Shown: one piece after another, positions 2,831 through 61,067 of the stretch
Position numbering within the stretch: position 1 is the stretch's first letter
Layout: the number at the start of each line of letters is the position of its first letter
Assembly: GCA_026397135.1 (NCBI GenBank)
Contig: JAPLVL010000001.1
Coordinates: forward strand, 12,753-76,752
Origin: Candidatus Berkelbacteria bacterium
GTDB lineage: Bacteria > Patescibacteriota > UBA1384 > XYA2-FULL-43-10 > 1-14-0-10-43-13
Reading direction: 5' to 3'
Length of the DNA: 64,000 nt
The notes under the pieces: model-generated
Database searches by the model: none
What the model was told of the DNA's origin: nothing
The model's input: only the letters and a program-made list of their open reading frames with translations
Position numbers and translations under genes: made by a program

Positions 2831-3952
2831 TTATTTCAACGCTTCGATTCCGGGCAATTTCTCGCCAGCCAAGAATTCCAATGCAGCTCCGCCACCAGTC
2901 GAAATGAAGCTAATATTCTTGTCTAATCCCTCTGATTTGACGAAACCAACCGTATCACCGCCGGCAATTACACTTGTCTTACCCACAAGCTGTGACATTG
3001 CTTTTGCGACTGCGAGCGAACCATCACGATATTTCTCCGATTCAGTATAGCCGAGATTTCCATTCCAAAGCACAGTCTCAGCTCCTTTGATGATCTCCGC
3101 AAATTTTTTCTGTGCATCTGGACCAATATCCATAATCTTCCATTTGCCACCGCTCTGCTCTTCCTTCAGCGAATCAATCGGCAAGATGATTTTCTTTGAT
3201 AATTTCTTCAGCATCTTCTCACAATCAGCCACCATTTCTGTATCATAAACAGATTCGCTAATCTCTTCACCCCTTGCCTTCAAGAAGGTATTTGCCACTC
3301 CTCCACCGATCAAAATCTTGTCAGCTTTCGGCGCCAATTTCTCAATCATGCCTGCTTTGTCTTTAATTTTAACACCGCCAACTACGATAATAAAGGGCTT
3401 TTTCGGACTCTCAATAATCTTGCCCAGATTTTCAATCTCGCTTTGCAAAAGTAATCCAGCAAAACTAGGCAAGAACTTAGTAATTGCTTCGACTGAAGCA
3501 TTGGCACGATGGCTGACAGCAAAAGCATCGTTAACATAAACATCAGCGTATTGCGCTAGCTCCTTCGCAAATCCTGCATCGTTTTCTTCTTCCCGCTTGT
3601 CCCAGCGCAAATTTTCCAATACCAAGATACCGCCAGGCTGAAGCGATTCGACCAGTTTTTCGACAGGAGCACCAAAAATTCCCGGCGCCATCGCCACCTT
3701 CAAATTCAGCATCCGCTGCAATTCCCTAGCAACCGGAGCGATTGAAGTCTCTTCGCTCGGCTTACCCTCTGGACGACCCAGATGAGTTCCAATAATTAAT
3801 TTGCACCGACTTTCGACTAGATATTTAATTGTCGGCAAAACGGCACGAATTCGGTTCAAATCGGAAATTTCTCCATCTTTGACCGGCACATTGAAATCAA
3901 CTCGCAAAAAAACTCTTTTGTCAGCTACTTCGGCCTCTTGAACTAATTTCAT
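2831..3952 (-). CDS. pgk: Phosphoglycerate kinase
   Basis: 373 aa. VFLRVDFNVP N-terminal signature and a GGGA..LEF..G.KLPG C-terminal hinge motif. Confidence 0.9.
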   Translation of the reverse strand: MKLVQEAEVADKRVFLRVDFNVPVKDGEISDLNRIRAVLPTIKYLVESRCKLIIGTHLGRPEGKPSEETSIAPVARELQRMLNLKVAMAPGIFGAPVEKLVESLQPGGILVLENLRWDKREEENDAGFAKELAQYADVYVNDAFAVSHRANASVEAITKFLPSFAGLLLQSEIENLGKIIESPKKPFIIVVGGVKIKDKAGMIEKLAPKADKILIGGGVANTFLKARGEEISESVYDTEMVADCEKMLKKLSKKIILPIDSLKEEQSGGKWKIMDIGPDAQKKFAEIIKGAETVLWNGNLGYTESEKYRDGSLAVAKAMSQLVGKTSVIAGGDTVGFVKSEGLDKNISFISTGGGAALEFLAGEKLPGIEALK

Positions 3953-4067
3953 CTTTCTCCAATTCTTAACTTTGATTTAATTTTAGCACTCAATCTTTTC
4001 ACAATCAAATGGCTTGCCCTCTGGACAAAAAATAGAGTAGAATAAAGATAGAAAATATCGGAGGGAA

Positions 4068-5033
4068 ATGAAATCAGTTGTCTCTATTCATCAGCTCGGT
4101 CAGATTTTTGATTTTATCAAAAAGGATTATCGTGTTCTCGGGACGAAGGAGGAAAACGGTAAGCCTATTTTCGGCGAAATCTCTAGCGCAAGAGAAATCC
4201 TAATCCCGACACCCAAGACGATTTTGCCTTTCAAAAAACTGATCTACCCTGCAATACTCGACCTGGCCAAAACGGAAAACGGAAAACCGGTCGCATTTTT
4301 CGGTATGACAAATTGTGATGCCGAAGCTCTCTGCGTCTTTTTGGACAAATTCAAAGACACCGGCCTCGTACCTCCGTTTAGAAATATCCTGGTAATTTCG
4401 ACGACCTGTGTCCCCGATGAAAATTGTTTCTGCACAGCCTTTGGCAACGGAAAAATTACAAATTTTGATCTCCACATCACCAAAGAAAAGGATCAGTACG
4501 CAATCTTCTCCGGTTCTGCGCTGGGGCGGAAAATTCTCAAACTGAACCGAATCAAAGTTTCAAATACTATATCGAAACCAACTGCAGTCAAGCTAGAAAA
4601 TGTCAGGAAAATCCAGTTAGAAAAACTAGGCAAGGCAATCGACGACAAAACCGGAAAACTGCCCTTCTGGCAGGAAATTGCAGACGAGTGTTTCGGCTGC
4701 GGCGCTTGTACTGCCGTCTGCCCGCTTTGTTTTTGCACCGGCAAAGACTTTGAAAATGATGCCGAGGGCGGCTGCAAACATTGCCTCAAATGGGATTCTT
4801 GCTATGCCAAAAGTTTCTCCGAAATTCAAAACCATTTCGACCTGCGCCCAAGCAATGTCAATCGGCTTTACAACTGGTATCATCACAAATTCGTCCGCTC
4901 ACCCAAGGAGGACGGCGAGATCCTCTGTACCGGTTGCGGCCGCTGTATCAAAGCCTGCCCTGCGTATCTGAACCAACATCGAATCATCGAAACTGTCCAA
5001 AATTATACAAAAGTAATCGACAAAAGCAAATAA
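4068..5033 (+). CDS. hydB: [NiFe] hydrogenase (group 3b-like) beta subunit, 2x[4Fe-4S] ferredoxin-like
   Basis: 321 aa. Two CxxCxxCxxxCP-type motifs (CFGCGACTAVCPLC and CTGCGRCIKACPAY). First gene of the beta-gamma-delta-alpha string. RBS GGAGGG before the ATG. Confidence 0.7.
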   Translation: MKSVVSIHQLGQIFDFIKKDYRVLGTKEENGKPIFGEISSAREILIPTPKTILPFKKLIYPAILDLAKTENGKPVAFFGMTNCDAEALCVFLDKFKDTGLVPPFRNILVISTTCVPDENCFCTAFGNGKITNFDLHITKEKDQYAIFSGSALGRKILKLNRIKVSNTISKPTAVKLENVRKIQLEKLGKAIDDKTGKLPFWQEIADECFGCGACTAVCPLCFCTGKDFENDAEGGCKHCLKWDSCYAKSFSEIQNHFDLRPSNVNRLYNWYHHKFVRSPKEDGEILCTGCGRCIKACPAYLNQHRIIETVQNYTKVIDKSK

Positions 5034-5044
5034 TCAATTCCAAA

Positions 5045-5854
5045 ATGCCAAACCAAGATTCAAAATTTAAATATACTTCATACGAAATTATCAAAAAGGA
5101 AGAGATGATGCCTGGCATGTTTCTCTTCCGATTGAAGGGTCGACTTGATTTCAAGCCCGGTCAATTTGTCCAAGCTGCGCTTGAACATTTCGGCGAAGGG
5201 ACATTTGCCCCCTGCTCCGATCCAAACCAAAAAGATTATTTCGAACTTTGCATCCGTGGTTGCGGTTCGACCTCAAACGGGCTAATCACTCTTTTGCCCG
5301 GTGATGAAATGCTCGTCAGGGGTCCTTACGGAAATGGCTGGCCAATCAAGAAACTCTGGTACAAAGACACTCTCCTGATCGCCGGCGGTATGGGGCTGGT
5401 CCCACTGCGACCGCTAATCTTCGAGATGCTACGAAGCAAGATCAACTTCGACAAAATCACTCTGGTTGCTGGCTTCAAGACAGATGAACATTTGCTTTTC
5501 TCACATGATTTGGAAATCTGGCGCAAGAAGTTATCCAAGGTCATCCCAGTAGTCGAAATCGGCAGCAAAAATTTCTGGGGTGAAATCGGAATGATCACCG
5601 AACCGCTCAAAAATCTAGTCTTCAACAAGAAAAAGACAATCGCTCTGATTTGCGGACCAGAAGTGATGGTGCCATTCGTCAACCAAGTTTTGGAGGAAAA
5701 AGGTCTCCCTCACAACCAAATTTATATTTCCTACGAGCGCCGAATGGAGTGCGGGATCGGCATCTGCCAACATTGCAATATTGGCAGCCACTTGGTCTGC
5801 AAAGACGGACCGATCTTCCGATACGATCAGATAAAGGAAGAGGTGGGCAAATGA
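5045..5854 (+). CDS. hydG: Hydrogenase gamma subunit: FAD/NAD(P)-binding oxidoreductase with C-terminal [2Fe-2S] (PyrK/FNR-like)
   Basis: Track ORF 4781..5854. Its first 88 codons overlap hydB in another frame, so the start is taken at ATG 5045 (MPNQDSK). FNR-like FAD region, LIAGGMGLVP NAD-binding motif, and C-terminal CGIGICQHCN...C cluster. Confidence 0.75.
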   Translation: MPNQDSKFKYTSYEIIKKEEMMPGMFLFRLKGRLDFKPGQFVQAALEHFGEGTFAPCSDPNQKDYFELCIRGCGSTSNGLITLLPGDEMLVRGPYGNGWPIKKLWYKDTLLIAGGMGLVPLRPLIFEMLRSKINFDKITLVAGFKTDEHLLFSHDLEIWRKKLSKVIPVVEIGSKNFWGEIGMITEPLKNLVFNKKKTIALICGPEVMVPFVNQVLEEKGLPHNQIYISYERRMECGIGICQHCNIGSHLVCKDGPIFRYDQIKEEVGK

Positions 5855-6567
5855 AAAAATCACTCGCCATATTTTCACTTACCTCCTGTGAGGGCTGTCA
5901 ATTCGAAATGTTAAATCACTACGAAACTTTCAACGGACTCCTAAAATACTTCGAGATCAAAAATTTTCGTCTAGGACAAGAAAATAATTTTGACGAAAAT
6001 TTCGACATTGCCATCATCGAAGGTAGCGCCGACGGCGAAGAACAAATTAAATTTTTGAAAAAAATACGCAAACAATCCAAGGTGATTGTCGCCATCGGTG
6101 CCTGCGCTCATCTAGGGGGCATTCAGTCCGAACGCAACAGTTTGCCACAGGGAATCTTCCACAAAAAACCGACCAAGATAGTCCCTGCTGTGATAAAAAC
6201 CGAATATATCATTCCGGGCTGTCCCATAAATCACGCGGAACTTTATCATTGTCTTTTGGATATTTACTGGGGCAAACAGTTTTTTCTGCCTGATTTAGCC
6301 GTTTGTTTCGAGTGTCGAGTGAATGAAAATGAATGTTTGATCAAATCTGGCAAACCCTGTCTTGGTCCAATCACCAGAAGCGGCTGCAACTCTGTCTGTG
6401 TCAACGCTGGCGAAGCTTGTCTCGGCTGCCGTGGAGCCAAACCAGAGCCAAACATCGAGAAATTGAAAAAAATCCTTGAGCCAATGATTGGAGAAAAAGA
6501 AACTGAAAATATAATGACAATTTATGGAGACTTAACAAATGAAATCGACCCCAGTGCAAAAAAATAA
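5851..6567 (+). CDS. hydD: [NiFe] hydrogenase small (delta) subunit
   Basis: Track ORF 5650..6567. Real start taken at ATG 5851 (MKKSLAIFSLTSCEGCQ), which overlaps the hydG stop (ATGA). Proximal-cluster Cys motif CEGC, then GxCA..GG and a C-terminal Cys pattern typical of group-3 small subunits. Confidence 0.75.
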   Translation: MKKSLAIFSLTSCEGCQFEMLNHYETFNGLLKYFEIKNFRLGQENNFDENFDIAIIEGSADGEEQIKFLKKIRKQSKVIVAIGACAHLGGIQSERNSLPQGIFHKKPTKIVPAVIKTEYIIPGCPINHAELYHCLLDIYWGKQFFLPDLAVCFECRVNENECLIKSGKPCLGPITRSGCNSVCVNAGEACLGCRGAKPEPNIEKLKKILEPMIGEKETENIMTIYGDLTNEIDPSAKK

Positions 6568-6853
6568 GATTCTTTCGCTAAGAAATCCGATAGTAATAAT
6601 CGTGATAGTGCTCCTTCTGATTTGGCTTTGTCCAAAACCATATTCACTATCAACAAACATCGTATCTATACCCAAATCTAGTCCTGGAAATAGCATTTCA
6701 AATCTAATCTATGAACAAGAGAGTTCCGGCTGGTGTATCGGAATCATTTATCCGGAAAAATCAAAATCTGATGTGCTTGGATTCAAGCTGGAAACTACCG
6801 GACTTGATTGTATCGGATTTCGTTTGCAGAAAAAGGGCCAGATTGCGCTTTAA
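6539..6853 (+). CDS. Hypothetical small membrane protein (doubtful)
   Basis: 104 aa with one TM segment. Overlaps the hydD 3' end and lies just outside the left inverted repeat of the GIY-YIG element. Confidence 0.25.
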   Translation: MKSTPVQKNKILSLRNPIVIIVIVLLLIWLCPKPYSLSTNIVSIPKSSPGNSISNLIYEQESSGWCIGIIYPEKSKSDVLGFKLETTGLDCIGFRLQKKGQIAL

Positions 6854-6885
6854 ACAATAAGAAGTAATTACCAATACACAAATAA

Positions 6886-7256
6886 ATAGTCATTCTGAGC
6901 CGATCTAGCTTGGAGGCGAAGAATCTAGCGAAGCGCAAAATGTTTGTTTACATTATCACAAACTATAAAAATAATGTTTTCTATATTGGCGTCACGAATA
7001 ATCTGACAAGACGAATATATGAACACAAAAATAAGTTATTTAGCAATTCCTTTTCCAGTAGATACAACTTATACAAATTAATTTGGTTCGAGGAGTTCAA
7101 TACTGCAATTGAAGCAATTACCGCTGAGAAAAAAAGGGATGGAAACGAGAAAGAAAAATTGAGATGATCAAGAAAACAAATCCCAATTTTCAGGAAATTG
7201 AATCTTATTAGTTTACGCTTCGCTAGATCCTTCGCAAGAACACTCAGGATGACTAT
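6886..7256. mobile_element. GIY-YIG gene-carrying element bounded by ~45-bp imperfect terminal inverted repeats, inserted between hydD and hydA
   Basis: Left end atagtcattctgagccgatctagcttggaggcgaagaatctagcgaagcg (~6886-6935). The reverse complement of the right end (~7216-7256) is atagtcatcctgagtgttcttgcgaaggatctagcgaagcgt. The termini share ATAGTCATYCTGAG and GCGAAGRATCTAGCGAAGCG. Confidence 0.6.
6940..7167 (+). CDS. GIY-YIG (URI-domain) nuclease superfamily protein, COG2827-like
   Basis: MFVYIITNYKNNVFYIGVTNNLTRRIYEHKN has the GIY...YIG...R...EH signature. The track ORF begins at 6910, but the ATG at 6940 follows the left inverted repeat directly. Confidence 0.65.
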   Translation: MFVYIITNYKNNVFYIGVTNNLTRRIYEHKNKLFSNSFSSRYNLYKLIWFEEFNTAIEAITAEKKRDGNEKEKLR

Positions 7257-7297
7257 TCAAGAGTCAACATTATCTGAAATTTAAATAAGGTAAAACA

Positions 7298-7606
7298 ATG
7301 GACAAGAATATCAAATTGATCAAGACTTTAATGATAATTATTGCCACCATCGACTCGATCGCAGCGATTGTCATATTTATCGGTATTAACCTTCTGGGAA
7401 ATATTGATTGCAGTTTGCCCCAAAAACCATGCTCAACCGAGTATTGGCCACTTTTGCTTTTATTGCCAACCATCATCTACACCATTGCTTCGCTCCAGAA
7501 GAACAAGATAGTTGGTATTGTCCTGAAATCAATAAGTATTCCCTTTTTGATAATATTCTTTCTTGTAACCTTAAATTACTTGTTAATGGCCAAAATAGGA
7601 AGGTAA
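7298..7606 (+). CDS. Hypothetical integral membrane protein (3 predicted TM helices)
   Basis: 102 aa, strongly hydrophobic. RBS aaggtaaaacaATG. Lies between the GIY-YIG element and hydA. Confidence 0.4.
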   Translation: MDKNIKLIKTLMIIIATIDSIAAIVIFIGINLLGNIDCSLPQKPCSTEYWPLLLLLPTIIYTIASLQKNKIVGIVLKSISIPFLIIFFLVTLNYLLMAKIGR

Positions 7607-7609
7607 AAA

Positions 7610-8860
7610 ATGGAAACAGCTGTTCCCAAAATTGAAGGTCATGCCGCATTTTATACTCATTTAAAGAGTGGCCATGTCGATAAAGCTAGAATCATCGGAC
7701 TCGAAAATGATCGTTTCGTTGAGAGAATTTTGGTTGGAAGAAAATACTGGGAAGCACCGATAATTACTTCTCGCATTTGCGGAATTTGCCCAGTTATCCA
7801 CAACATCACCTCGACAAGAGCGATAGAGAATGCCTGCAACATCGAAGTGAGCAATCAGACAATTCTACTCCGGAAGCTGATGCTAGCAGGACAGATGGTC
7901 CAGAGCCATTCTCTCCATCTCTACCTTCTGGTTTTGCCTGATTTTGTCGGAGCAAGTTCCTCCTTCGAGTTACAAAGGGATCATCCTGAGATTTTTCAGA
8001 ACGCAATTGAATTGAAGAAATATGCTGACAGAATTATCGAGACTGTCGGCGGCCGAGCCGTTCATCCCGTCGCTTCCGTTCCTGGCGGCTTCAAATCTTT
8101 CCCCACCAAGGAGAAGATTACTGCCCTAATTCCAATTGGGCAGAAGACAACAGAGATTGCCGAAACAACTCTCCGACTTTTTGCTACATTTAAGTATCCA
8201 CAGTTGAAACGAGAGATAATCTCGAGTGCATTATATCTTGATCACGAATACGCAATCTACAATGGCGATATCTGGAACAGTAAAGGCGATATTTTCAAAG
8301 CAGAGAAATATCATGACTACATTTATGAGGAGCTAAAACCTTACACTCGGGCAAAATTCGGAACACTCAAGGGATACGAGATGGTCGTCGGCGCTGCCGC
8401 CAGACTCAATATCAACGGTTTCAAAAACCTAAGCCCAAAAACACAGGAGCTGATTGAGGAATTTAATATTACGCTTCCACTTAATAATCCGTTTGATAAT
8501 ATTATGGCTCAGGCAATCGAGAATCATCACTTCGCCGCGCAATCAGTCGAGCTTTTGGAGTATTTCCAGAAAACAGGTGTCAAAAATGAAAAATTAGTTG
8601 TACCCTCCGATTTTGGCAAAGGCACCGCCGCTTGTGAGGCTCCGCGAGGAACACTTTTTCATTATTACAATCTCGACAAAGATGGATTTATCGAAAAGTG
8701 TGACATTATCACACCTACAGTTCAGACCCTGCCCGCAATAGAATTTGACCTAAAGAATCTCTCACCTCTTCTCAAGGATCTATCTCCATCCGAGAGAAGC
8801 ACTCTGATCGAAACCTTGATTCGAGCATATGACCCCTGCATTACCTGTGCCACACATTAA
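7610..8860 (+). CDS. hydA: [NiFe] hydrogenase large (alpha) subunit; ends exactly at the L5 motif histidine
   Basis: 416 aa. N-terminal RICGICPVIH (RxCGxC L1 motif). C-terminal DPCITCATH followed directly by the stop codon, so there is no C-terminal extension. Confidence 0.85.
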   Translation: METAVPKIEGHAAFYTHLKSGHVDKARIIGLENDRFVERILVGRKYWEAPIITSRICGICPVIHNITSTRAIENACNIEVSNQTILLRKLMLAGQMVQSHSLHLYLLVLPDFVGASSSFELQRDHPEIFQNAIELKKYADRIIETVGGRAVHPVASVPGGFKSFPTKEKITALIPIGQKTTEIAETTLRLFATFKYPQLKREIISSALYLDHEYAIYNGDIWNSKGDIFKAEKYHDYIYEELKPYTRAKFGTLKGYEMVVGAAARLNINGFKNLSPKTQELIEEFNITLPLNNPFDNIMAQAIENHHFAAQSVELLEYFQKTGVKNEKLVVPSDFGKGTAACEAPRGTLFHYYNLDKDGFIEKCDIITPTVQTLPAIEFDLKNLSPLLKDLSPSERSTLIETLIRAYDPCITCATH

Positions 8861-8863
8861 AAG

Positions 8864-8904
8864 TGGGCAAGTACGCAAGTGGGGTGGGCAAGTACGCAAG
8901 TGGG
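8864..8904. repeat. Tandem direct repeat, 2 x ~21 bp (gtgggcaagtacgcaagtgg), directly after the hydA stop
   Basis: Read directly: gtgggcaagtacgcaagtgg g gtgggcaagtacgcaagtgg. Confidence 0.6.
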
Positions 8905-8990
8905 TATGTAAATAAGCTAGACAAACAAAAGTTTATCCCTGTGTCTACTTGTAACTTGCACACCTATTACCTGCGCACTAGTTAATTTAC

Positions 8991-9019
8991 TTGCAAACTG
9001 ATACACTTACATTTATAAT
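8991..9019 (+). promoter_or_regulatory. Sigma70-like promoter TTGCAA - 17 nt - TATAAT for the 9053 gene
   Basis: ttgcaa actgatacacttacatt tataat, then GGAGGG RBS 6 nt before ATG 9053. Confidence 0.45.
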
Positions 9020-9052
9020 AAAATTAAAATTAAAAGTTCTCTAGGAGGGAAA

Positions 9053-9409
9053 ATGGCAAAGAAAGTAGCAAAAAAGGCTCCAGCAAAGGCGCTTGATTTC
9101 AGTCAGGGAGGTAAAATCTCCAAAGTTCTCATTTATTTAATGTTGGCAGTCAATGTTATCACTGTTGCCTATTTTCTGGCTTTCAATCCAGCAGAGACAA
9201 CTGTCAACAACTTCACCAAGTTCCTGTCTCAATTTTCCAGCTACCTCTTCTTGACGATCCTCCTGATCGTGATCGCTGAATATTTCACGAAGCAAATCAA
9301 TGCCAAGCAAATGATGATGAAACTTCTGTCAGTTTTCGGTCTGATCGTTGGCATTATGCTTTCATACGCAATCGCACAAGTCGTCTTGGGTCTTATTGCT
9401 GTTAAATAA
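9053..9409 (+). CDS. Hypothetical membrane protein (Lys-rich N-terminus, 3 TM helices)
   Basis: 118 aa. Strong promoter and RBS upstream. Hydrophobic segments are clear. Confidence 0.5.
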   Translation: MAKKVAKKAPAKALDFSQGGKISKVLIYLMLAVNVITVAYFLAFNPAETTVNNFTKFLSQFSSYLFLTILLIVIAEYFTKQINAKQMMMKLLSVFGLIVGIMLSYAIAQVVLGLIAVK

Positions 9410-9420
9410 CAAGGTAGTCC

Positions 9421-9726
9421 ATGGTGTTTGAAGCCGGTGCTTCACCTTCAGATTTTGCATTTAGCAAAACCTCGCAGGCAGACAAAACAAAAAACGATCA
9501 AGTGGCAGCAATTTTGCCGATCCCAAATCAAACATTGGACAAAGTCAAAGAATTGGAAATGCAGATTTCACACCTTGAAGAGAATTTGAGAGCGACCAAG
9601 CGAGCTCTCATGGGTGGAAATCCGGATTTGGCCAAAAATATCAAAATATGGGAAGATCAACTGCAATTCAAATACCAAAAACTCCATCACTTCCGCCAGA
9701 AACTGAAAAATGAAAATTTAAACTAA
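9421..9726 (+). CDS. Hypothetical coiled-coil protein
   Basis: 101 aa, heptad-rich (LEMQISHLEENLRATKRAL). Confidence 0.4.
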   Translation: MVFEAGASPSDFAFSKTSQADKTKNDQVAAILPIPNQTLDKVKELEMQISHLEENLRATKRALMGGNPDLAKNIKIWEDQLQFKYQKLHHFRQKLKNENLN

Positions 9727-9752
9727 CATTTAGTTCACCGAATATAGTACTT

Positions 9753-9783
9753 AAAAAAATTCTCCACCGTGTTGACGGTGGAG
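9753..9783 (-). terminator. Rho-independent terminator between convergent genes: 9-bp perfect stem ctccaccgt/acggtggag, T7 run on the minus strand
   Basis: aaaaaaa ttctccaccgtgttgacggtggag, i.e. A7 on plus = T7 on minus right after the hairpin. The stop of the 9790..10257 gene abuts it. Confidence 0.6.
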
Positions 9784-9789
9784 CGGAAT

Positions 9790-10257
9790 TTAATATTCGT
9801 AATAGTAGCGCTCTTTGGGCAGTTCCAGTTTGTAAAACTTGAGCAAGCTCAAATTGGCCGGATTGTTAAGAATCGAAGTGAAAAAGTTGAAGACTTTGTC
9901 ATCGTGATTCTTGCCCTCGCAAGTAGCAACACAAGACGCCGGGATCTGACGGCTCTCAAATTCAATCAACTTCTCTCTTTTACCGGCCTCGTCCCCATTC
10001 CAGACTACCAACGCGAAGCTAAAACCAGCACGAGAAGAATGGATAGAGACAGGAAGATAATATTCCTGCACATAAGCAAGGATTCGCTCAAATTCCTGTA
10101 TTGTAAGATTGCGCCGTTCTTCCCAATTCGGCGCAGAGTGAGAAGTCCCGCTAATATTTGTCCGATAATGGATATAGCCTCGCTGCACCCAGATTGCCTC
10201 CTCGAGAGTCCTGAAAAACTCCAGAGCTTCAGTGGACAATGTTACCACCGATTCCAT
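9790..10257 (-). CDS. Hypothetical acidic protein
   Basis: 155 aa. Preferred over the overlapping plus-strand ORF 9769..10284, which starts inside the terminator hairpin and is Arg-rich low-complexity. Confidence 0.45.
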   Translation of the reverse strand: MESVVTLSTEALEFFRTLEEAIWVQRGYIHYRTNISGTSHSAPNWEERRNLTIQEFERILAYVQEYYLPVSIHSSRAGFSFALVVWNGDEAGKREKLIEFESRQIPASCVATCEGKNHDDKVFNFFTSILNNPANLSLLKFYKLELPKERYYYEY

Positions 10258-10390
10258 AGCGACATTCCTCCTCTTGTGATCTAGTTTGATTTATACCAAA
10301 AACAAACCCCAAAAGCAAAGTTGGTGTAGGATTACTTATTTTAACTGCTTGACTCGGTTGATTTCGTGTAACTGTTCACTTACACCGTTC

Positions 10391-10570
10391 GTCATCCTGA
10401 GGAATCGAAGGACCCATTCGGCTACGCTCAGCAGGTTCTAGAGCATGTGACCTGGGCTCGCAAAAAATGCGCCACGCTAGATTCCCATACTTACCGGTCA
10501 TCGACTCCAAGGTCGCTCAGACTCGAGGAGCAGGCAGGTTCGCCTTCAAGCATCATCTGCCCAGAATGAC
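10391..10570. repeat. Miniature (~180 bp, no ORF) copy of the GTCATYCTGAG-terminated inverted-repeat element, in a GC-rich intergenic region
   Basis: Plus-strand gtcatcctgagg at ~10391 and cccagaatgac (reverse complement of gtcattctggg) at ~10560. An internal cgctagattc is shared with the termini of the GIY-YIG element. Confidence 0.5.
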
Positions 10571-10602
10571 GGAAAATCACAATTTCACAACTCCTTGGCA
10601 AA

Positions 10603-10830
10603 TTAGTCCCGACAGGCCATTTCATCATGCGTTTTTATAAATTTCAAATTTTCTTTTGCTTCCTTGGCACTAATTTTCGACAAAGCTCGACCATCATGCA
10701 TCAGTATCCAATCCCCTTTCCTGACCTGCGGTGCAAGCGAAATGTCAGCCGAATATTCTCTGTCTTCATAATCAAAGAAGGCAATATTGCCCTTAATTTG
10801 TTTGATTTTACCCGGAATTGCTAGACACAT
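10603..10830 (-). CDS. hypC: Hydrogenase maturation factor HypC/HupF family
   Basis: 75 aa, begins MCLAIPGKI. This is the HypC N-terminal MC[LI][AG][IV]P signature, with the essential Cys2, on a small OB-fold-sized protein. Confidence 0.8.
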   Translation of the reverse strand: MCLAIPGKIKQIKGNIAFFDYEDREYSADISLAPQVRKGDWILMHDGRALSKISAKEAKENLKFIKTHDEMACRD

Positions 10831-20008: not shown

Positions 20009-21406
20009 TTAATTTTCAATCATCCCCTCGCGATGCAGTTTGCGGTAGAACGAAATTGCAAATCTATGCGCTTCATCCCGAGTCGCAATACAGACATTTT
20101 GAAGAGAGATATTGCCGGCAAAATATTTGGCGACTTCAGAATTGGCAAAATGAAAGTCGTTCTTCTGTCTCTTGGGTCCTTTGGAGATAGAGACAAGCGG
20201 TATTTGTAACTCAAAATCACTCAAAACTTCCTTTGCCACCCGCAATTGCATCTCTCCTCCATCAATTACAATTAAATCTGGTTTTGGCCAATCATTCCGA
20301 AACCTCCGCTCCAGAACCTGCTTCAACCGAAACAGATCATTATTGTCATTTCGACCCGTCTGCACGGCAGGCAGGCTCGACGAAGTCGGTGGAGAAATCT
20401 GGAGTGAAGTGTCATCCTGATCTTGTCGAAGGATCTCATCCTTTGCGGAAAATCTATCAACCCCAGGAACATCGCTCGAGATGACAGAATTATTAATTTT
20501 GAACTTTCTGTACTCATCAGAGGCTTTTCTTCCGTCAACAAATACGACCATTGAGCCAACAACATATTCATCCCCAATATTAGCAATGTCGTAGCACTCA
20601 ATCCGTTTGAATAATATTTTATTACTATCAAAAACGTCATCGCGAAGTCCGATCACTACTTCAGAGATATGTTGCAGGGCATACAATTTATTACGAACAA
20701 TGGCCGCTTCTTCAAATTTCTCTTTTTTTGAAAAACGTGTCATTTCCTTCTCGAGATCGCGAATTATCTCCTGCTTTTTACCACGCAAGAACGCTTTCAA
20801 ATATTTAATATTTTTATTGTAATTTTCCGCACTAATACTACCAACACAAGGTGCCGTACAAATTTTTATATCTCCATAAATGCACGATCGACCCTTTTTG
20901 GCGGCTGAACTATATTTCGTCTTTGTACAATCACGAAAAGGAAAAATTTTGCGAAGATATCGTATCGATTTCTTAAGCAACAATCCTGCAGGGTAAGGTC
21001 CGAAATAGTCAGCCGACTTGTCCGAAAAATCAACATTCTTAACCCGAACCAGCTCAAGGACGGGAAATGCTGTTTTTGTAATTTTCTTGGCTATCTTAAT
21101 AACCAAGAAGGATTTATCGTCCTTTAGTCTCACGTTGTACTTCGGCTTCAATTTGTTGATCAGCTCAGCCTCAAGCAAAACCGCTTCAATCTCTGACCCA
21201 GTTTCGATATATTTAATATCAAAAGCCTTTTCTACCATTTGCTCAATCGCTGGTCCACGGCCCAACTCTTTCAGGAAATATTGCTTCAGGCGATTCTGCA
21301 AGTTTTTCGCTTTACCCACATACAAAATCCCTCCCTTTTCATCAAGGAAGCGATAAACACCCGGCTTTTTGGGCAAATCTTTAATTTTGTCTTTTGAATT
21401 TATCAT
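20009..21406 (-). CDS. uvrC: Excinuclease ABC subunit C (UvrC), apparently lacking the C-terminal (HhH)2 domain
   Basis: N-terminal GIY-YIG (KPGVYRFLDEKGGILYVGKAKNLQNRLKQYF) and a C-terminal RNase H-like region ending RDEAHRFAISFYRKL. Track ORF runs to 21505; likely start MINSKDK (~21406). The protein stops ~12 aa after AHRFAI. Confidence 0.8.
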   Translation of the reverse strand: MINSKDKIKDLPKKPGVYRFLDEKGGILYVGKAKNLQNRLKQYFLKELGRGPAIEQMVEKAFDIKYIETGSEIEAVLLEAELINKLKPKYNVRLKDDKSFLVIKIAKKITKTAFPVLELVRVKNVDFSDKSADYFGPYPAGLLLKKSIRYLRKIFPFRDCTKTKYSSAAKKGRSCIYGDIKICTAPCVGSISAENYNKNIKYLKAFLRGKKQEIIRDLEKEMTRFSKKEKFEEAAIVRNKLYALQHISEVVIGLRDDVFDSNKILFKRIECYDIANIGDEYVVGSMVVFVDGRKASDEYRKFKINNSVISSDVPGVDRFSAKDEILRQDQDDTSLQISPPTSSSLPAVQTGRNDNNDLFRLKQVLERRFRNDWPKPDLIVIDGGEMQLRVAKEVLSDFELQIPLVSISKGPKRQKNDFHFANSEVAKYFAGNISLQNVCIATRDEAHRFAISFYRKLHREGMIEN

Positions 21407-21546
21407 TATCAAATATTTCTCCACCCTCCTTGAGGAGTCGAAATGACAACAAAAGGAAGTTTGCGAATTTCCGCTCATTATATGAGTTTTCATCAAAATA
21501 TTCAAGCTATAGGCACGGAAACAGAAATTGCTTGAACAATATAGAG

Positions 21547-26477: not shown

Positions 26478-27557
26478 GTGATTTTTATTATGAACAACGA
26501 AAAACTACAATCTATTCTCGATCATTACAACACTCTTGGCAAAAGCCTCGAAGACCCAGCAACGATGCAAAATCAAGCAGAATTTACCAAAATTGCCCGC
26601 GAGAAAGCCAGCCTTTCTGATCTTGCAAACTTAATTAGGCGTTATTTTGGTATTCTCGAAAACCTCAAAGAAAGCAATGAACTTCTCGAATCAGACGATG
26701 AAGAGCTGAAAGAAATGGCCAAAGAGGAAATCTCCAGTTTAAACCAAGAAAAAGAAGCTTTGACAAAAAATTTAGAAATTGCTCTCCTGCCAACTGACCC
26801 CAATGATGACAAAAATGTTATCATCGAAATCAGACCAGGCGCCGGTGGTGACGAATCGGAACTTTTCGCCGCTGAAATTTTTCGTATGTACACTAGATAT
26901 GCAGAGCGCTTAGGTTGGCACACCAATATTTTAACCTCTCAAACAACGGGGATCGGTGGAATCAAAGAAATTTCATTTGAAATCAGCGGCGACAAAGTAT
27001 ATTCAAAGATGAAATATGAGTCAGGTGTTCATCGCGTTCAGCGTGTGCCGGAGACAGAAAAACAGGGTCGGGTTCATACTTCAACCGTCACTGTTGCAGT
27101 ACTTCCTGAGGCAGAAGAGGCTGACATTGAAATCAAAAATGAAGATCTTCGAATCGACACATATTGTGCCGGCGGACATGGCGGCCAATCGGTCAATACA
27201 ACATACTCAGCCGTCAGAATCACCCATATTCCCACAGGTACAGTTGTGGTTTGCCAAGACGAACGAAGCCAGTTGAAGAACAGAGACAAGGCGATGAGTA
27301 TTTTGCGCTCTAGAATCATGGCCGATCGCGAAGAAAAAGCTGCTCGCGAACGCGGCGATATCCGCAGATCCCAGGTCGGAACAGGGGACAGATCTGAAAA
27401 AATCAGAACTTATAACTTCCCACAGGATCGCGTCACCGATCATCGAATCAATCAATCTTGGCATTCACTCCCAAACATTATGGATGGCGAGATCGAGCCT
27501 ATTATTTCCTCGCTAATGAACGAAGATCAGGCACGAAAACTGGCCGCCAGTGAGTGA
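26478..27557 (+). CDS. prfA: Peptide chain release factor 1
   Basis: 359 aa. GGQ motif ([11 protein letters not shown]) and an RF1-type P-x-T codon-recognition loop ([17 protein letters not shown]). Confidence 0.9.
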
Positions 27558-28599
27558 TTTTTTGATGAATTTATCACAAACGAATAAAAAACTATTTGAG
27601 TTATTTAAGTCAGCCAAATCACCAAATCCAGAGCTTGATGCTTCTATAATTCTGGAATTTGTTTTGAAGATCAAAAGGGCAGAGGCACTCACCCACCCCA
27701 AGCTAATTCTCAAGGAGAGCCAAACTGCCAAGATTTTCAAACTCGCGAAAAGACGCTTAATTGGTGAACCTATCGCCTACCTCACTAACCACAAAGAATT
27801 TTTTGGGTATGATTTTTTCGTAAACAAAAATGTCCTTATCCCCCGCCCCGAGAGTGAATGGCTAATTGAGCATTCGCTCGAGCTTATAAAGTCCAAGGTC
27901 CAAAAAGTTGAAGGCAGATTTCATATTCTTGATCTCGGCACCGGTTCCGGCTGCCTAATCATATCGCTAGTGAGTCAGTTAATCAGCGAGCCAGCGACTG
28001 GGCTATTTAATTTTTTCGCGAGCGATGTTTCGAGCAAAGCCATCGTAGTTGCCAAGAAAAATAGCAAAACTTTACTTAGCCGTCATTCTGAAAGAAGTGA
28101 AGAGTCCTATAAAGGTGAGGGGATCCTTCGCCATGCTCAGAATGACACAATCAAATTTATTCATTCTAGCCTCTTCTCCAACCATCTACTTCGCAAGAAA
28201 TTTGATCTCATTATCGCCAATCTCCCCTATGTGCCCATCACCGATTATCATCTCGACTCTTCGACACTTTCGTCGAAGTTGGAGAGATCTTCTACTGAAG
28301 AAAATTATATAAAATTGCAAGATCTCTCGACTCCACTTCGTTCCACTCGAGATGACAATGGTATTGCATTCGAGCCAGCCTCCGCGATTTTTGCACAAGA
28401 CAACGGAGCCGAGATCATCAAAATATTTTTATCCGAATCGCTAAAATATTTAGCCAAGAACGGAGTCATCTTAATCGAACTTGATCCTCGCAATGCAATC
28501 GAACTGGAGAAATTTTCCAGAAAAACCTATCCGAACGCCAAAATAAAACTCGAAAAAGATCTGGCTGGGCTTGATCGGTATCTCTCGATAGAAAACTAA
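27550..28599 (+). CDS. prmC: Release-factor glutamine N5-methyltransferase (PrmC/HemK) with a large internal insertion
   Basis: 349 aa. SAM-binding [15 protein letters not shown] and catalytic IANLPYVP (NPPY variant), with ~90 extra residues between them. Overlaps prfA by 8 nt. Confidence 0.8.
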
Positions 28600-60078: not shown

Positions 60079-60109
60079 TCCGGAAATTATTTAATTCTTT
60101 TTTGGATCC
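60040..60109. repeat. Direct repeat copy 1 (70 bp; serS promoter/RBS/first codons), pairs with 61114..61183
   Basis: aatatcaagcatatttttcctct [16 divergent nt] tccggaaattatttaattcttttttggatcc: 54/70 identical to copy 2. Confidence 0.7.
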
Positions 60110-60117
60110 TGAATCAA

Positions 60118-60302
60118 GCTCAGGATGACAAAATATTTTTACCTATTTGCTGGCTCACTATTTCTTATCACCTAATAGTTTTTTAATTTTAGTGGCAGGC
60201 AAAAAGTTCTCTCCTGTAACTACATTTTGCCCTGTTTTTTGCTCAAGCGCAATCCTCGCATCCTTGGCAACGCTGTCACTTTCTAATTTTGTCATTGCGA
60301 GC
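60118..60302. repeat. Miniature inverted-repeat unit (~185 bp, no ORF) with gctcaggatgacaaaat / attttgtcattgcgagc termini, adjacent to GIY-YIG gene 2
   Basis: Termini are reverse-complementary (14/17 match). A hairpin cccactcagagtggg lies just beyond, at ~60305-60319. Confidence 0.55.
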
Positions 60303-60332
60303 CATCCCACTCAGAGTGGGAGGCGCGGCAAT

Positions 60333-60632
60333 CTATCCAATAATTTCCTGATACAAATCCAGAAAATTGGGATTATCCTTGGTTATTAAATCGATTTTCT
60401 TCTGCCTTGACCCTGCTTTAATTTGTTTTTCTCGATTGATAGCAGAATTTGAATCGCTATATAATTCGTAATAAACTAGCTTCGTTACATTATATCTTCC
60501 GGTGAAACTTTCGACAACCTTGTTTTTATGTTCGTAAACTCTACGGATAATGTTATTTGTTACTCCAGTATAAATTACCGTATTGGTATGATTTGTCATC
60601 AGATAAACATAGTAATATTGTTCCAATTTCAT
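60333..60632 (-). CDS. GIY-YIG (URI-domain) nuclease superfamily protein, second copy
   Basis: 99 aa. YYYVYLMTNHTNTVIYTGVTNNIIRRVYEHKN, paralogous to the 6940..7167 protein (YIITNYKNNVFYIGVTNNLTRRIYEHKN). Confidence 0.7.
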   Translation of the reverse strand: MKLEQYYYVYLMTNHTNTVIYTGVTNNIIRRVYEHKNKVVESFTGRYNVTKLVYYELYSDSNSAINREKQIKAGSRQKKIDLITKDNPNFLDLYQEIIG

Positions 60633-61067
60633 TTATAAGATTGCCACGGCCTGCGGCCTCGCAATGACAGAAAAGGTAATTTCCTGCATTCTTTCATACC
60701 CAACCTTTGCAAGCCAAAGTTTGATCGGCTCGGCTTTCTTGCTCGGGACTAATTGAACCAGTCTTAGAATCGTCTCAACATCCGCCACATCGGTTTTATA
60801 AAATTTGCCATCAGCAGACATCATTTTCAGTTTGTCACAATTTGTGACTAACTGACTTCCTTCCTTTTTCAGACGATTCTTTAATGTTGTCCAATAGCTC
60901 TGGGCCTTCTTGAAATCCAGCTGTTCAGTCAACGCCGCGACGATATCAATCACCGAAAAATACCACGCCTCTTTTTTCTCATCATAGAGCCTGCGGATCT
61001 TAAAATTCTCAAATATTGCTAAACTGTTTTGATCTTGTTCCATATTTCTATTCAATGTTTTTCCCAT
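60633..61067 (-). CDS. Bro-N domain (phage antirepressor-like DNA-binding) protein
   Basis: 144 aa. FENFKIRRLYDEKKEAWYFSVIDIVAALT matches the Bro-N core (F..IR…g..WF.a.DVa.aL). Its stop abuts the GIY-YIG start. Confidence 0.6.
   Translation of the reverse strand: MGKTLNRNMEQDQNSLAIFENFKIRRLYDEKKEAWYFSVIDIVAALTEQLDFKKAQSYWTTLKNRLKKEGSQLVTNCDKLKMMSADGKFYKTDVADVETILRLVQLVPSKKAEPIKLWLAKVGYERMQEITFSVIARPQAVAIL

Follow-up and report, generated by a model that had tools for sequence, protein, structure and literature searches.

The window analysed in this study, a 64-kb stretch of DNA from Candidatus Berkelbacteria, carries a [NiFe] hydrogenase operon of four subunits, which were identified from the list of open reading frames (ORFs) together with a Pfam search: beta (4068–5033; Fer4_22), gamma (approximately 5048–5854; FAD/NAD binding), delta or small subunit, encoded by hydD (5845–6567, plus strand; Oxidored_q6, PF01058, E=7e-21), and alpha or large subunit, encoded by hydA (7610–8860, plus strand; NiFeSe_Hases, PF00374, E=7.9e-34). 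Between hydD and hydA lies a gap of approximately 1 kb, with a G+C content of 31–40% compared with 43–50% in the hyd genes. Within this gap, at 6885–7257, a short gene for a GIY-YIG nuclease stands between inverted arms. This unit, hereafter referred to as element 1, had been regarded in a preliminary description as a nuclease gene within a terminal-inverted-repeat element, inserted into the operon between the small- and large-subunit genes.

The arms of element 1 were resolved by a repeat search into an outer inverted-repeat block of 15 nt (6885–6899/7243–7257; 93%) and an inner block of 24 nt (6916–6939/7212–7235; 92%). Both the 14-mer ATAGTCATYCTGAG and the 20-mer GCGAAGRATCTAGCGAAGCG are present in one copy per arm, while shuffled sequences predict 0.75 and 0.03 copies, respectively. 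The ORF between the arms (6940–7167, plus strand; 75 aa in its first frame, ending at a premature stop) matched Pfam PF01541 with an E-value of 6.6e-14 (52.4 bits over 6940–7164, against a cut-off of 22.6). The two repeat blocks and this match confirmed the inverted termini around a GIY-YIG ORF and the assignment to PF01541 that the preliminary description had proposed to check. The termini are, however, more than simple inverted repeats, because each arm is a hairpin of its own and belongs to a repeat family that crosses phyla. The left arm (6885–6939, plus strand) contains the hairpin GTC-ATTCT-GA-GCC...GGC-GA-AGAAT-C (6889–6925), followed by the extension CTAGCGAAGCG with a GCGAAGC mini-hairpin, and the right arm (7212–7257), inverted on the minus strand, reads GTC-ATCCT-GA-G...GCGA-AGGAT-C with the same extension. 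The stem of the right arm differs from that of the left arm by a compensated change, T to C paired with A to G. Since this change is compensated inside each arm, pairing within an arm is favoured over pairing between the arms. A covariance model built from 85 units of the hairpin family matched both the left arm (6885–6927; 29.4 bits, E=1e-4) and the right arm (7224–7257; 25.8 bits).

The nuclease gene of element 1 is frameshifted. The frame breaks at an A7 run (about 7128–7134), so that positions 3–77 of the family hidden Markov model (HMM) are found in the frame 6886–7164 and positions 71–93 in the frame 7128–7208. The C-terminal remainder in the shifted frame, EKKGWKRERKIEMIKKTNPNFQEIESY (7128–7211, plus strand, with the stop at 7209–7211), matched HMM positions 71–93 with an E-value of 1.5e-5. 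The first frame retains the catalytic positions Y, Y-G, R, H and E, while the conserved C-terminal Asn (NPNF) falls past the frameshift, leaving the full catalytic set outside any single frame. The arms folded as DNA no better than shuffled sequence (left arm, −5.4 kcal/mol, z=0.36; right arm, z=1.07), compared with z=−4.6 and −1.6 for the arms of a second copy in the window, described below. Based on the frameshift and the poorly folding arms, we read element 1 as a decaying copy, which is probably inactive; it has neither the intact enzyme gene nor the intact ends of an active mobile element. The frameshift at the A7 run may reflect an error in sequencing the homopolymer, or the frame may be restored by slippage there. 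As an independent check of this frame, exact-product look-ups for HydD, for the 75-aa ORF and for ORF104, an orphan ORF in the same gap, gave nothing, and Logan contigs span only 7474–10539 and the second copy, and so do not reach the A7 run. A frameshifted nuclease gene was also seen near codon 80, at a site unlike that of element 1, in an uncultured Candidatus Berkelbacteria (L045, 1501–1790), where two hairpin units stand in tandem in the upstream flank.

The second copy, element 2 (60287–60672, minus strand), is intact. Its arms (60287–60335, plus, and 60637–60672, minus) both carry the core ATTGC/GCAAT, and are unlike those of element 1 in sequence and alike in design. They matched the covariance model with 33 and 40 bits. 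The GIY-YIG gene between them (60333–60632, minus strand) encodes 99 aa with all catalytic residues present (family HMM, E=7e-45), and its product is 48% identical to the repaired nuclease of element 1. Approximately 150 nt from element 2, a solo hairpin, GTCATCCTGAGCTTGATTCAGGATC (60103–60133, minus strand), scored 20.8 bits in the covariance model and folded as DNA with z=−3.6. In the whole window, the motif GTCATYNNGAG was detected 10 times against 1.19 expected, and the units found by the covariance model were the four element arms, the solo hairpin at 60103–60133 and units within two genes. The expectation in the preliminary description that the terminus should recur was therefore borne out for the motif family, but not for the exact 20-mer of the element 1 arms, which occurs nowhere else in the window. 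Recurrence of the termini elsewhere is as predicted for a selfish element.

The hairpin units of this family follow the consensus (Y)GTC-ATNNN-GA-[variable inner hairpin]-G(A/AA/TG)-NNNAT-C(T/C), in which the unpaired or mismatched nucleotides GTC, GA, G(A/AA/TG) and C are invariant. The arms of intact elements are structured hairpins of 30–50 nt whose conserved 5'-(Y)GTCAT ends point outward. Covariation is seen in the 5-bp outer stem (ATTGC/GCAAT, ATTCT/AGAAT, ATCCC/GGGAT, ATTCC/GGAAT, ATCCT/AGGAT, ATTAC/GTAAT and others), and each of nine core types pairs with its own partner. Among 239 GTCATYNNGAG motifs taken from the window and related loci, 204 (85%) had the exact complement of their own core no more than 70 nt away, compared with 7% for the complements of other cores. 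The inner helix was 75% paired, with compensatory changes, and sliding the partner by 1–3 columns reduced pairing over the whole structure to 26–56%; the units for this alignment were chosen by a perfect outer complement, which inflates outer-stem pairing there, and the unbiased value for the outer stem is the 204 of 239 given above. The inner hairpin is free in sequence and length with its pairing kept, and often ends in a GNA triloop closed by C-G (GCGAAGC). In 142 of 154 distinct units, the GTCAT strand folded better than its complement. Given the inverted arrangement of the arms, this strand asymmetry fits recognition of each DNA end rather than of one transcript. Rfam searches of the window at gathering thresholds, and of 6400–7700 at E≤1, gave no match for the arms, indicating that no intron or known RNA accounts for them.

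Across bacteria, the nuclease gene and the hairpins are associated. A scan of one genome per species gave more than 528 loci with relatives of the nuclease, from which 80 loci (236 kb in total) encoding proteins 51–70% identical to the query were kept, picked by protein similarity alone. These loci span Cyanobacteria, many groups of the Candidate Phyla Radiation, Nitrospirota, Chloroflexi, Firmicutes, Proteobacteria and Bacteroidota, and also include Ignavibacteria, Elusimicrobia, Omnitrophota and others. The density of the exact motif was 4.7 per kb in the 150 nt upstream of the gene (41 on the plus and 14 on the minus strand) and 6.4 per kb in the 150 nt downstream (51 minus, 24 plus), compared with 0.46 per kb in the farther flanks, where orientation was not biased likewise, and 0.41 per kb within the gene. 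At least one correctly oriented arm was present in 51 of the 80 loci and both arms in 28, and the two arms shared the same core at 23 of these 28 two-armed loci. The covariance model detected 312 units in the 236 kb. For 48 of 54 proteins, the nearest protein neighbour belonged to the same hairpin core class, a value reached by none of 2000 label permutations; this tracking of protein clade by core class suggests that the gene and its arms travel together.

The family to which the nuclease belongs is large, with 3,692 clusters (50% identity) at E≤1e-10 and 11,372 at E≤1e-3. It gave a single weak match among 50,697 phage records and 32 matches among 72,556 plasmid records, and no meaningful match in the PADLOC library of defence systems. 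Many family members in the database are 120–170 aa in length with the nuclease domain at the C-terminus (P0122–P0270), and the extra 30–75 N-terminal residues may stem from genes annotated with a start too far upstream, within the hairpins that precede them.

The hairpins also occur without the gene. Of 120 metagenome stretches (660 kb) retrieved solely by the hairpin pattern, only seven encoded the nuclease, and outward-facing inverted doublets with spacers of 5–62 nt made up 58 of 83 adjacent unit pairs. Gene-less hairpins, in the form of inverted doublets of 80–110 bp, solos and tandem arrays, far outnumber the gene-bearing form and are located both in intergenic DNA and in frame inside genes. 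At one locus on Planktothrix plasmids, the presence of the gene differs between strains. On plasmid p1 of Planktothrix agardhii No.66 (L088, 17356–20613), the nuclease gene lies amid hairpin doublets within a defence island, between an MmeI-type restriction–modification gene and DISARM drmA, while the same locus on the plasmids of PCC7805 and NIES-204, with flanks 84–95% identical to those of No.66, holds three tandem doublets and no nuclease gene, with a PIN toxin–antitoxin cassette instead. No recent dispersal of this doublet was detected, as it was present at only one locus in the plasmid collection. A doublet apparently duplicated at two places in one metagenome contig (L147, 860–1030 and 4385–4555) was set aside, because the two copies have the same flanks, reverse-complemented, and are probably a palindromic assembly artefact.

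We analysed the class of the enzyme by profile comparison. The family proteins, of approximately 95–100 aa, consist of a minimal stand-alone GIY-YIG domain with no DNA-binding module. A profile of 48 family members matched the structures 1zg2 (1.1e-8) and 1ywl (5.3e-5), and UvrC with only 0.014. The nuclease is thus a minimal UPF0213/Slx1-like GIY-YIG protein, to which the COG2827 label would apply by profile likeness. The UPF0213 structures 1zg2 and 1ywl were assigned to the Slx1 group (Dunin-Horkawicz et al. 2006, PMC1564403), and eukaryotic Slx1 is a structure-specific endonuclease (PMC1564403). UPF0213 or bacterial Slx1-like proteins, represented by these two structures and by the YhbQ group of E. 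coli, share the minimal stand-alone domain and the length (approximately 95–105 aa); the relation is distant (single-sequence E=0.007), and neither flanking hairpins nor mobility are reported for them in the searchable literature or seen in the present data. The preliminary description had asked whether the nuclease is a homing endonuclease recognizing the terminal repeat. GIY-YIG homing endonucleases such as I-TevI and Seg share with the family the catalytic domain and a selfish, patchily distributed gene, but they carry a long C-terminal DNA-binding region and belong to group I introns or phages, neither of which applies here. TIGR01453, the model for group I intron or homing endonucleases, scored 23.6 bits against a cut-off of 56.05 and covered the catalytic part only. 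With a score below the cut-off, a protein that ends after the catalytic domain, no intron and only the one weak phage match, the classical homing endonuclease of I-TevI type was rejected as a label for this protein.

As in insertion sequences, the elements have terminal inverted repeats. Pfam and NCBIfam searches revealed no recognized transposase class within element 1, in which the GIY-YIG gene is the sole ORF, and the enzyme is not the HUH/Y1 tyrosine transposase that defines REP/RAYT systems. No target-site duplication was detected in the sequence flanking 28 elements with the gene and 12 doublets, where the inverted repeat merely extends by one base, Y...R. The AATA/TATT beside element 1 is compatible with duplication of TA, which was not seen elsewhere.

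We next compared the hydD–hydA junction of related genomes, for which the preliminary description had expected contiguous genes. The comparison bore this out in part. In a relative with a HydA 73% identical to that of the window (L002), hydD and hydA overlap by one base, and the same one-base overlap is found in Berkelbacteria with a HydA 66% identical (L005/L006), indicating that the spacer of approximately 1 kb is lineage-specific. In contrast, another relative (L003; HydA 70% identical) also has a gap of approximately 1 kb, with different content and no nuclease gene. That gap contains two tandem solo hairpins of the same family as those of element 1, GTCATTCTGAGCC...CGCGAAGAATCC, together with two GC-rich non-coding stretches and an unrelated small membrane ORF. 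The component common to the two gaps is the hairpin and not the gene, and the presence of hairpins of its own in the second gap indicates that this junction is a recurrent landing site, hit more than once.

The GC-rich non-coding stretches of L003 (4130–4400 and 4755–4990) lie in AT-rich surroundings and adjoin the two solo hairpins; no Rfam match was obtained for L003, and the stretches showed no similarity to any other locus compared. A relatively GC-rich non-coding piece of approximately 180 nt is also located in the window, at 10391–10571 (10385–10575 in the comparison below), with GTCATCCTGAG at its left and CAGAATGAC at its right. It gave no Rfam match (10250–10660, at E-value thresholds), no significant fold and no trace of the nuclease, and may be what is left of an element that lost its contents, or else cargo without any relation to it. 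The independent Logan contig L001 terminates within this piece. An RNA cargo shared by the hairpin-flanking pieces was considered for this segment and both L003 stretches, and was dismissed, as they show neither mutual similarity nor a significant fold. As to other cargo between inverted hairpins at the sampled loci, only one or two small ORFs and no second gene family were found.

Two protein-coding genes in the window carry hairpin units that are read in frame. In prmC/hemK (27550–28599), the inserts lie within 28078–28360, as an inverted doublet (28078–28150) and a second pair (28243–28360) directly after the NLPY motif; the peptide encoded by the second insert is ...DYHLDSS...PLRSTRDDN.... 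In an alignment of PrmC proteins, several orthologues were without inserts, while others had CH(S/L/F)(E/D)...R(N/D)D(N/K) segments of their own at the same two sites, which look like hotspots or old, retained insertions. A uvrC-like gene (20009–21505, minus strand) has three in-frame units within 20341–20489, matched by the covariance model at 20341–20401, 20407–20437 and 20430–20489. This gene has an N-terminal GIY-YIG domain of its own, and the translated insert reads ...SVISSDVPGVDRFSAKDEILRQDQDDTSLQISPPTSSSLPAVQTGRNDNN.... A further weak hairpin unit (21412–21451) is located just upstream of its likely start.

With respect to the remaining content of the hydD–hydA gap, element 1 does lie in a gap of approximately 1 kb as first described, but it shares this gap with two orphan ORFs. 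ORF104 (6539–6853, plus strand), between hydD and element 1, overlaps the end of hydD and has a hydrophobic N-terminal stretch; it had no match in Pfam or NCBIfam and its exact product is not on record. ORF102 (7298–7606, plus strand) has predicted membrane-like segments and stops 4 nt before hydA; it had no detectable homologue and did not resemble the small membrane ORF of the L003 gap. Both are predicted ORFs and should be regarded as putative genes only. The start of ORF104, ATGAAATCGACCCCAGTGCAAAAAAAT (6536–6570), occupies the place where hydA begins in relatives and is loosely like the start of hydA, ATGGAAACAGCTGTTCCCAAAATT (7606–7640). This likeness is weak, and the ORF104 start may be a remnant of a junction duplicated by the insertion or, alternatively, a chance similarity. 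A junction alignment showed that the C-terminus of hydD is 9 codons longer than in L002/L005. HydD and HydA are both full length, and HydA is 100% identical to one NCBI protein from a metagenome-assembled genome of Candidatus Berkelbacteria. Promoter and terminator scans of 3900–9100 gave counts at chance level. The consequence of element 1 for the hydrogenase is probably modest, since the operon's structural genes are undamaged and element 1 itself appears to be dead. Rfam detected nothing at gathering thresholds in the whole 64 kb, and the window therefore appears to be without tRNA, rRNA and riboswitches.

The closest parallel to this organization among known systems is provided by the REP/REPIN elements with RAYT genes (Nunvar 2010, PMC2817692; Bertels and Rainey 2011, PMC3116915). 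As in those systems, dispersed hairpins that are short and imperfect and share a conserved 5' tag are found as solos, inverted doublets with short spacers and arrays; the few enzyme genes are flanked by inverted hairpins, target duplication is absent, and the units are chromosomal rather than borne by phages or plasmids. The differences are that the enzyme here is GIY-YIG while RAYT is an HUH/Y1 transposase, that GTCAT takes the place of GTAG or CGTC as the tag, that the consensus spans many phyla while REP sequences are lineage-specific, and that units are also found in frame within coding genes while REP is strictly extragenic. By analogy, the hairpin/GIY-YIG system would work like REP/RAYT without being a member of it. 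Insertion sequences and the MITEs (miniature inverted-repeat transposable elements) derived from them offer a second parallel, in that an autonomous unit has inverted ends and one small enzyme gene and its gene-less derivatives are commoner. The gene-less doublets are short and non-coding, share the ends of the autonomous partner and are more numerous, as MITEs are. In contrast to these elements, no DDE, serine or Y1 transposase and no target-site duplication were seen, and each end folds on itself as a hairpin, instead of being a plain repeat to which a protein binds. A third comparison concerns the in-frame coding insertions, which resemble the Rickettsia palindromic elements that Ogata et al. 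are said to have described in 2000, palindromic repeats reportedly located in frame in protein genes and translated as extra peptides. Those elements are confined to one genus and are longer, about 100–150 bp, and to our knowledge they have no associated enzyme gene.

Taken together, we lean towards the reading that 6885–7257 represents a decaying member of a family of compact selfish elements, in which a hairpin-bracketed GIY-YIG gene of approximately 95 aa would be mobilized in a REP/RAYT-like or IS/MITE-like manner. Eukaryotic members of the Slx1 branch cut branched and stem-loop DNA. On this model, the nuclease would recognize the hairpin of each end, extruded or single-stranded, on its GTCAT strand and nick at the hairpin base. 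The nick would start the copying or excision of the DNA between two inverted hairpins, which may be the master copy with its gene or, acted on in trans, a doublet without one. Element 1 would have landed or been trapped in the hydD–hydA junction of Candidatus Berkelbacteria, and its reading frame, together with most base pairs in the inner helices of its arms, would have been lost afterwards. The unpaired nucleotides conserved at the base of the hairpin, the covarying stems, the preferred strand and the inverted ends all fit a protein that recognizes a folded DNA end. The data themselves show how the elements are built, that their stems covary, that gene and hairpins go together across phyla, that forms lacking the gene exist, that sites differ in presence or absence, and that element 1 has decayed. 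From this combination we infer the GIY-YIG protein as the mobilizing enzyme, DNA and not RNA as its substrate, and the site of nicking.

Several observations weigh against this reading. No pair of copies was recent enough to display a clean insertion, the two copies in the window being only 48% identical, and neither a target-site duplication nor a consistent target sequence was visible. Because the gap holds two orphan ORFs, there is no empty site with exact boundaries for element 1. We know of no GIY-YIG protein that acts as a prokaryotic transposase, and no precedent was found in the searchable literature. The enzyme, a catalytic domain of approximately 95 aa, has no module that is obviously suited to recognizing a sequence. 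Host relatedness may in part account for the link of hairpin core to protein clade, and the difference among the Planktothrix plasmids could have arisen when DNA between repeated doublets was deleted, with no insertion involved.

The main rival to the selfish-element reading, which we consider unlikely, reverses the relation between gene and hairpins: the hairpins would spread independently, a free-standing GIY-YIG gene would cut doublets in or near the spacer and be copied in by repair, and the arms would be its target rather than its ends. Outward doublets with short spacers, the commonest arrangement (58 of 83), have the same frame as the setting of the gene, arrays of doublets occupy one locus of the Planktothrix plasmids both where the gene is present and where it is absent, and the low proportion of hairpin stretches with the gene (7 of 120) is also as such homing would have it. 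However, the protein is without the DNA-binding extension of homing enzymes of the GIY-YIG class, its TIGR01453 score is below the cut-off, and no other candidate for the enzyme that spreads the hairpins was seen near them; the tracking of hairpin core by protein clade is predicted by both models. The two other explanations, a caretaker role on the host side and a role at the RNA level, are less likely. In the former, the hairpins would be useful to or tolerated by the host, as proposed for REP, and the nuclease would be a repair enzyme that processes extruded hairpins or cruciforms, its gene gathering hairpins around it. The kinship to UPF0213/Slx1 proteins, regarded as repair enzymes by Dunin-Horkawicz et al. 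(PMC1564403), agrees with this, as does the near absence from phages and rarity on plasmids. It is nevertheless improbable in view of the strict orientation of the arms and the core common to both sides of the gene, the presence of the same hairpin sequence with proteins 50–67% identical in unrelated phyla, the frequency of frameshifted copies, the presence or absence of the gene between strains at one locus, and insertions in mid-operon and in coding genes, which look selfish rather than useful.

A role at the RNA level would have the arms act in a transcript, for instance by pairing with each other into a stem processed by RNase III, as in the intervening sequences of 23S rRNA, or as hairpins that stabilize or terminate the nuclease mRNA. 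The arms are located in the untranslated flanks of the gene, their outer 11 nt could pair, and G-U pairs in the stems are more frequent in the sense fold (69) than in the antisense fold (35). Against these points, the covariation is within the arm, and where the arms differ (element 1 and 5 of 28 two-armed loci) each is self-complementary; the strand that folds better differs between the two arms, and any one transcript would carry one of them in its weak sense; units are found in both orientations inside coding genes; no T run follows the arms and the terminator scan was at chance; and no Rfam family was matched. We therefore regard this explanation as very improbable.

The family of hairpin-bracketed GIY-YIG genes is widespread, structurally well defined and apparently undescribed; neither the architecture nor the terminal sequences were found described in the searchable literature, the coverage of which is incomplete, so that this absence is not proof. 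The hairpin consensus common to distant phyla suggests that it either spreads horizontally at high frequency or is under a very strong constraint on its structure. Mobile hairpins of this kind would explain a source of annotation noise in metagenomes, namely, odd ...CHSE.../...ARNDK... segments inside conserved proteins, and possibly also the extended N-termini of proteins called 'GIY-YIG nuclease family protein', and in copy-rich genomes the hairpins may add to contig breaks. If the nuclease does mobilize the hairpins, these elements, at about 380 bp, would be among the smallest autonomous elements known, and their enzyme would belong to a class not known to move DNA in prokaryotes. More tentatively, and as a possibility that we rate below even, they may represent a pan-bacterial and so far unrecognized class of mobile DNA, in which an Slx1-like nuclease of approximately 95 residues acts on structured hairpin ends and mobilizes its own gene together with abundant gene-less doublets of 80–110 bp, able to persist in frame within essential genes such as prmC and uvrC. 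GIY-YIG would then join DDE, HUH/Y1 and serine/tyrosine recombinases as a further enzymatic basis of transposition or homing in prokaryotes.

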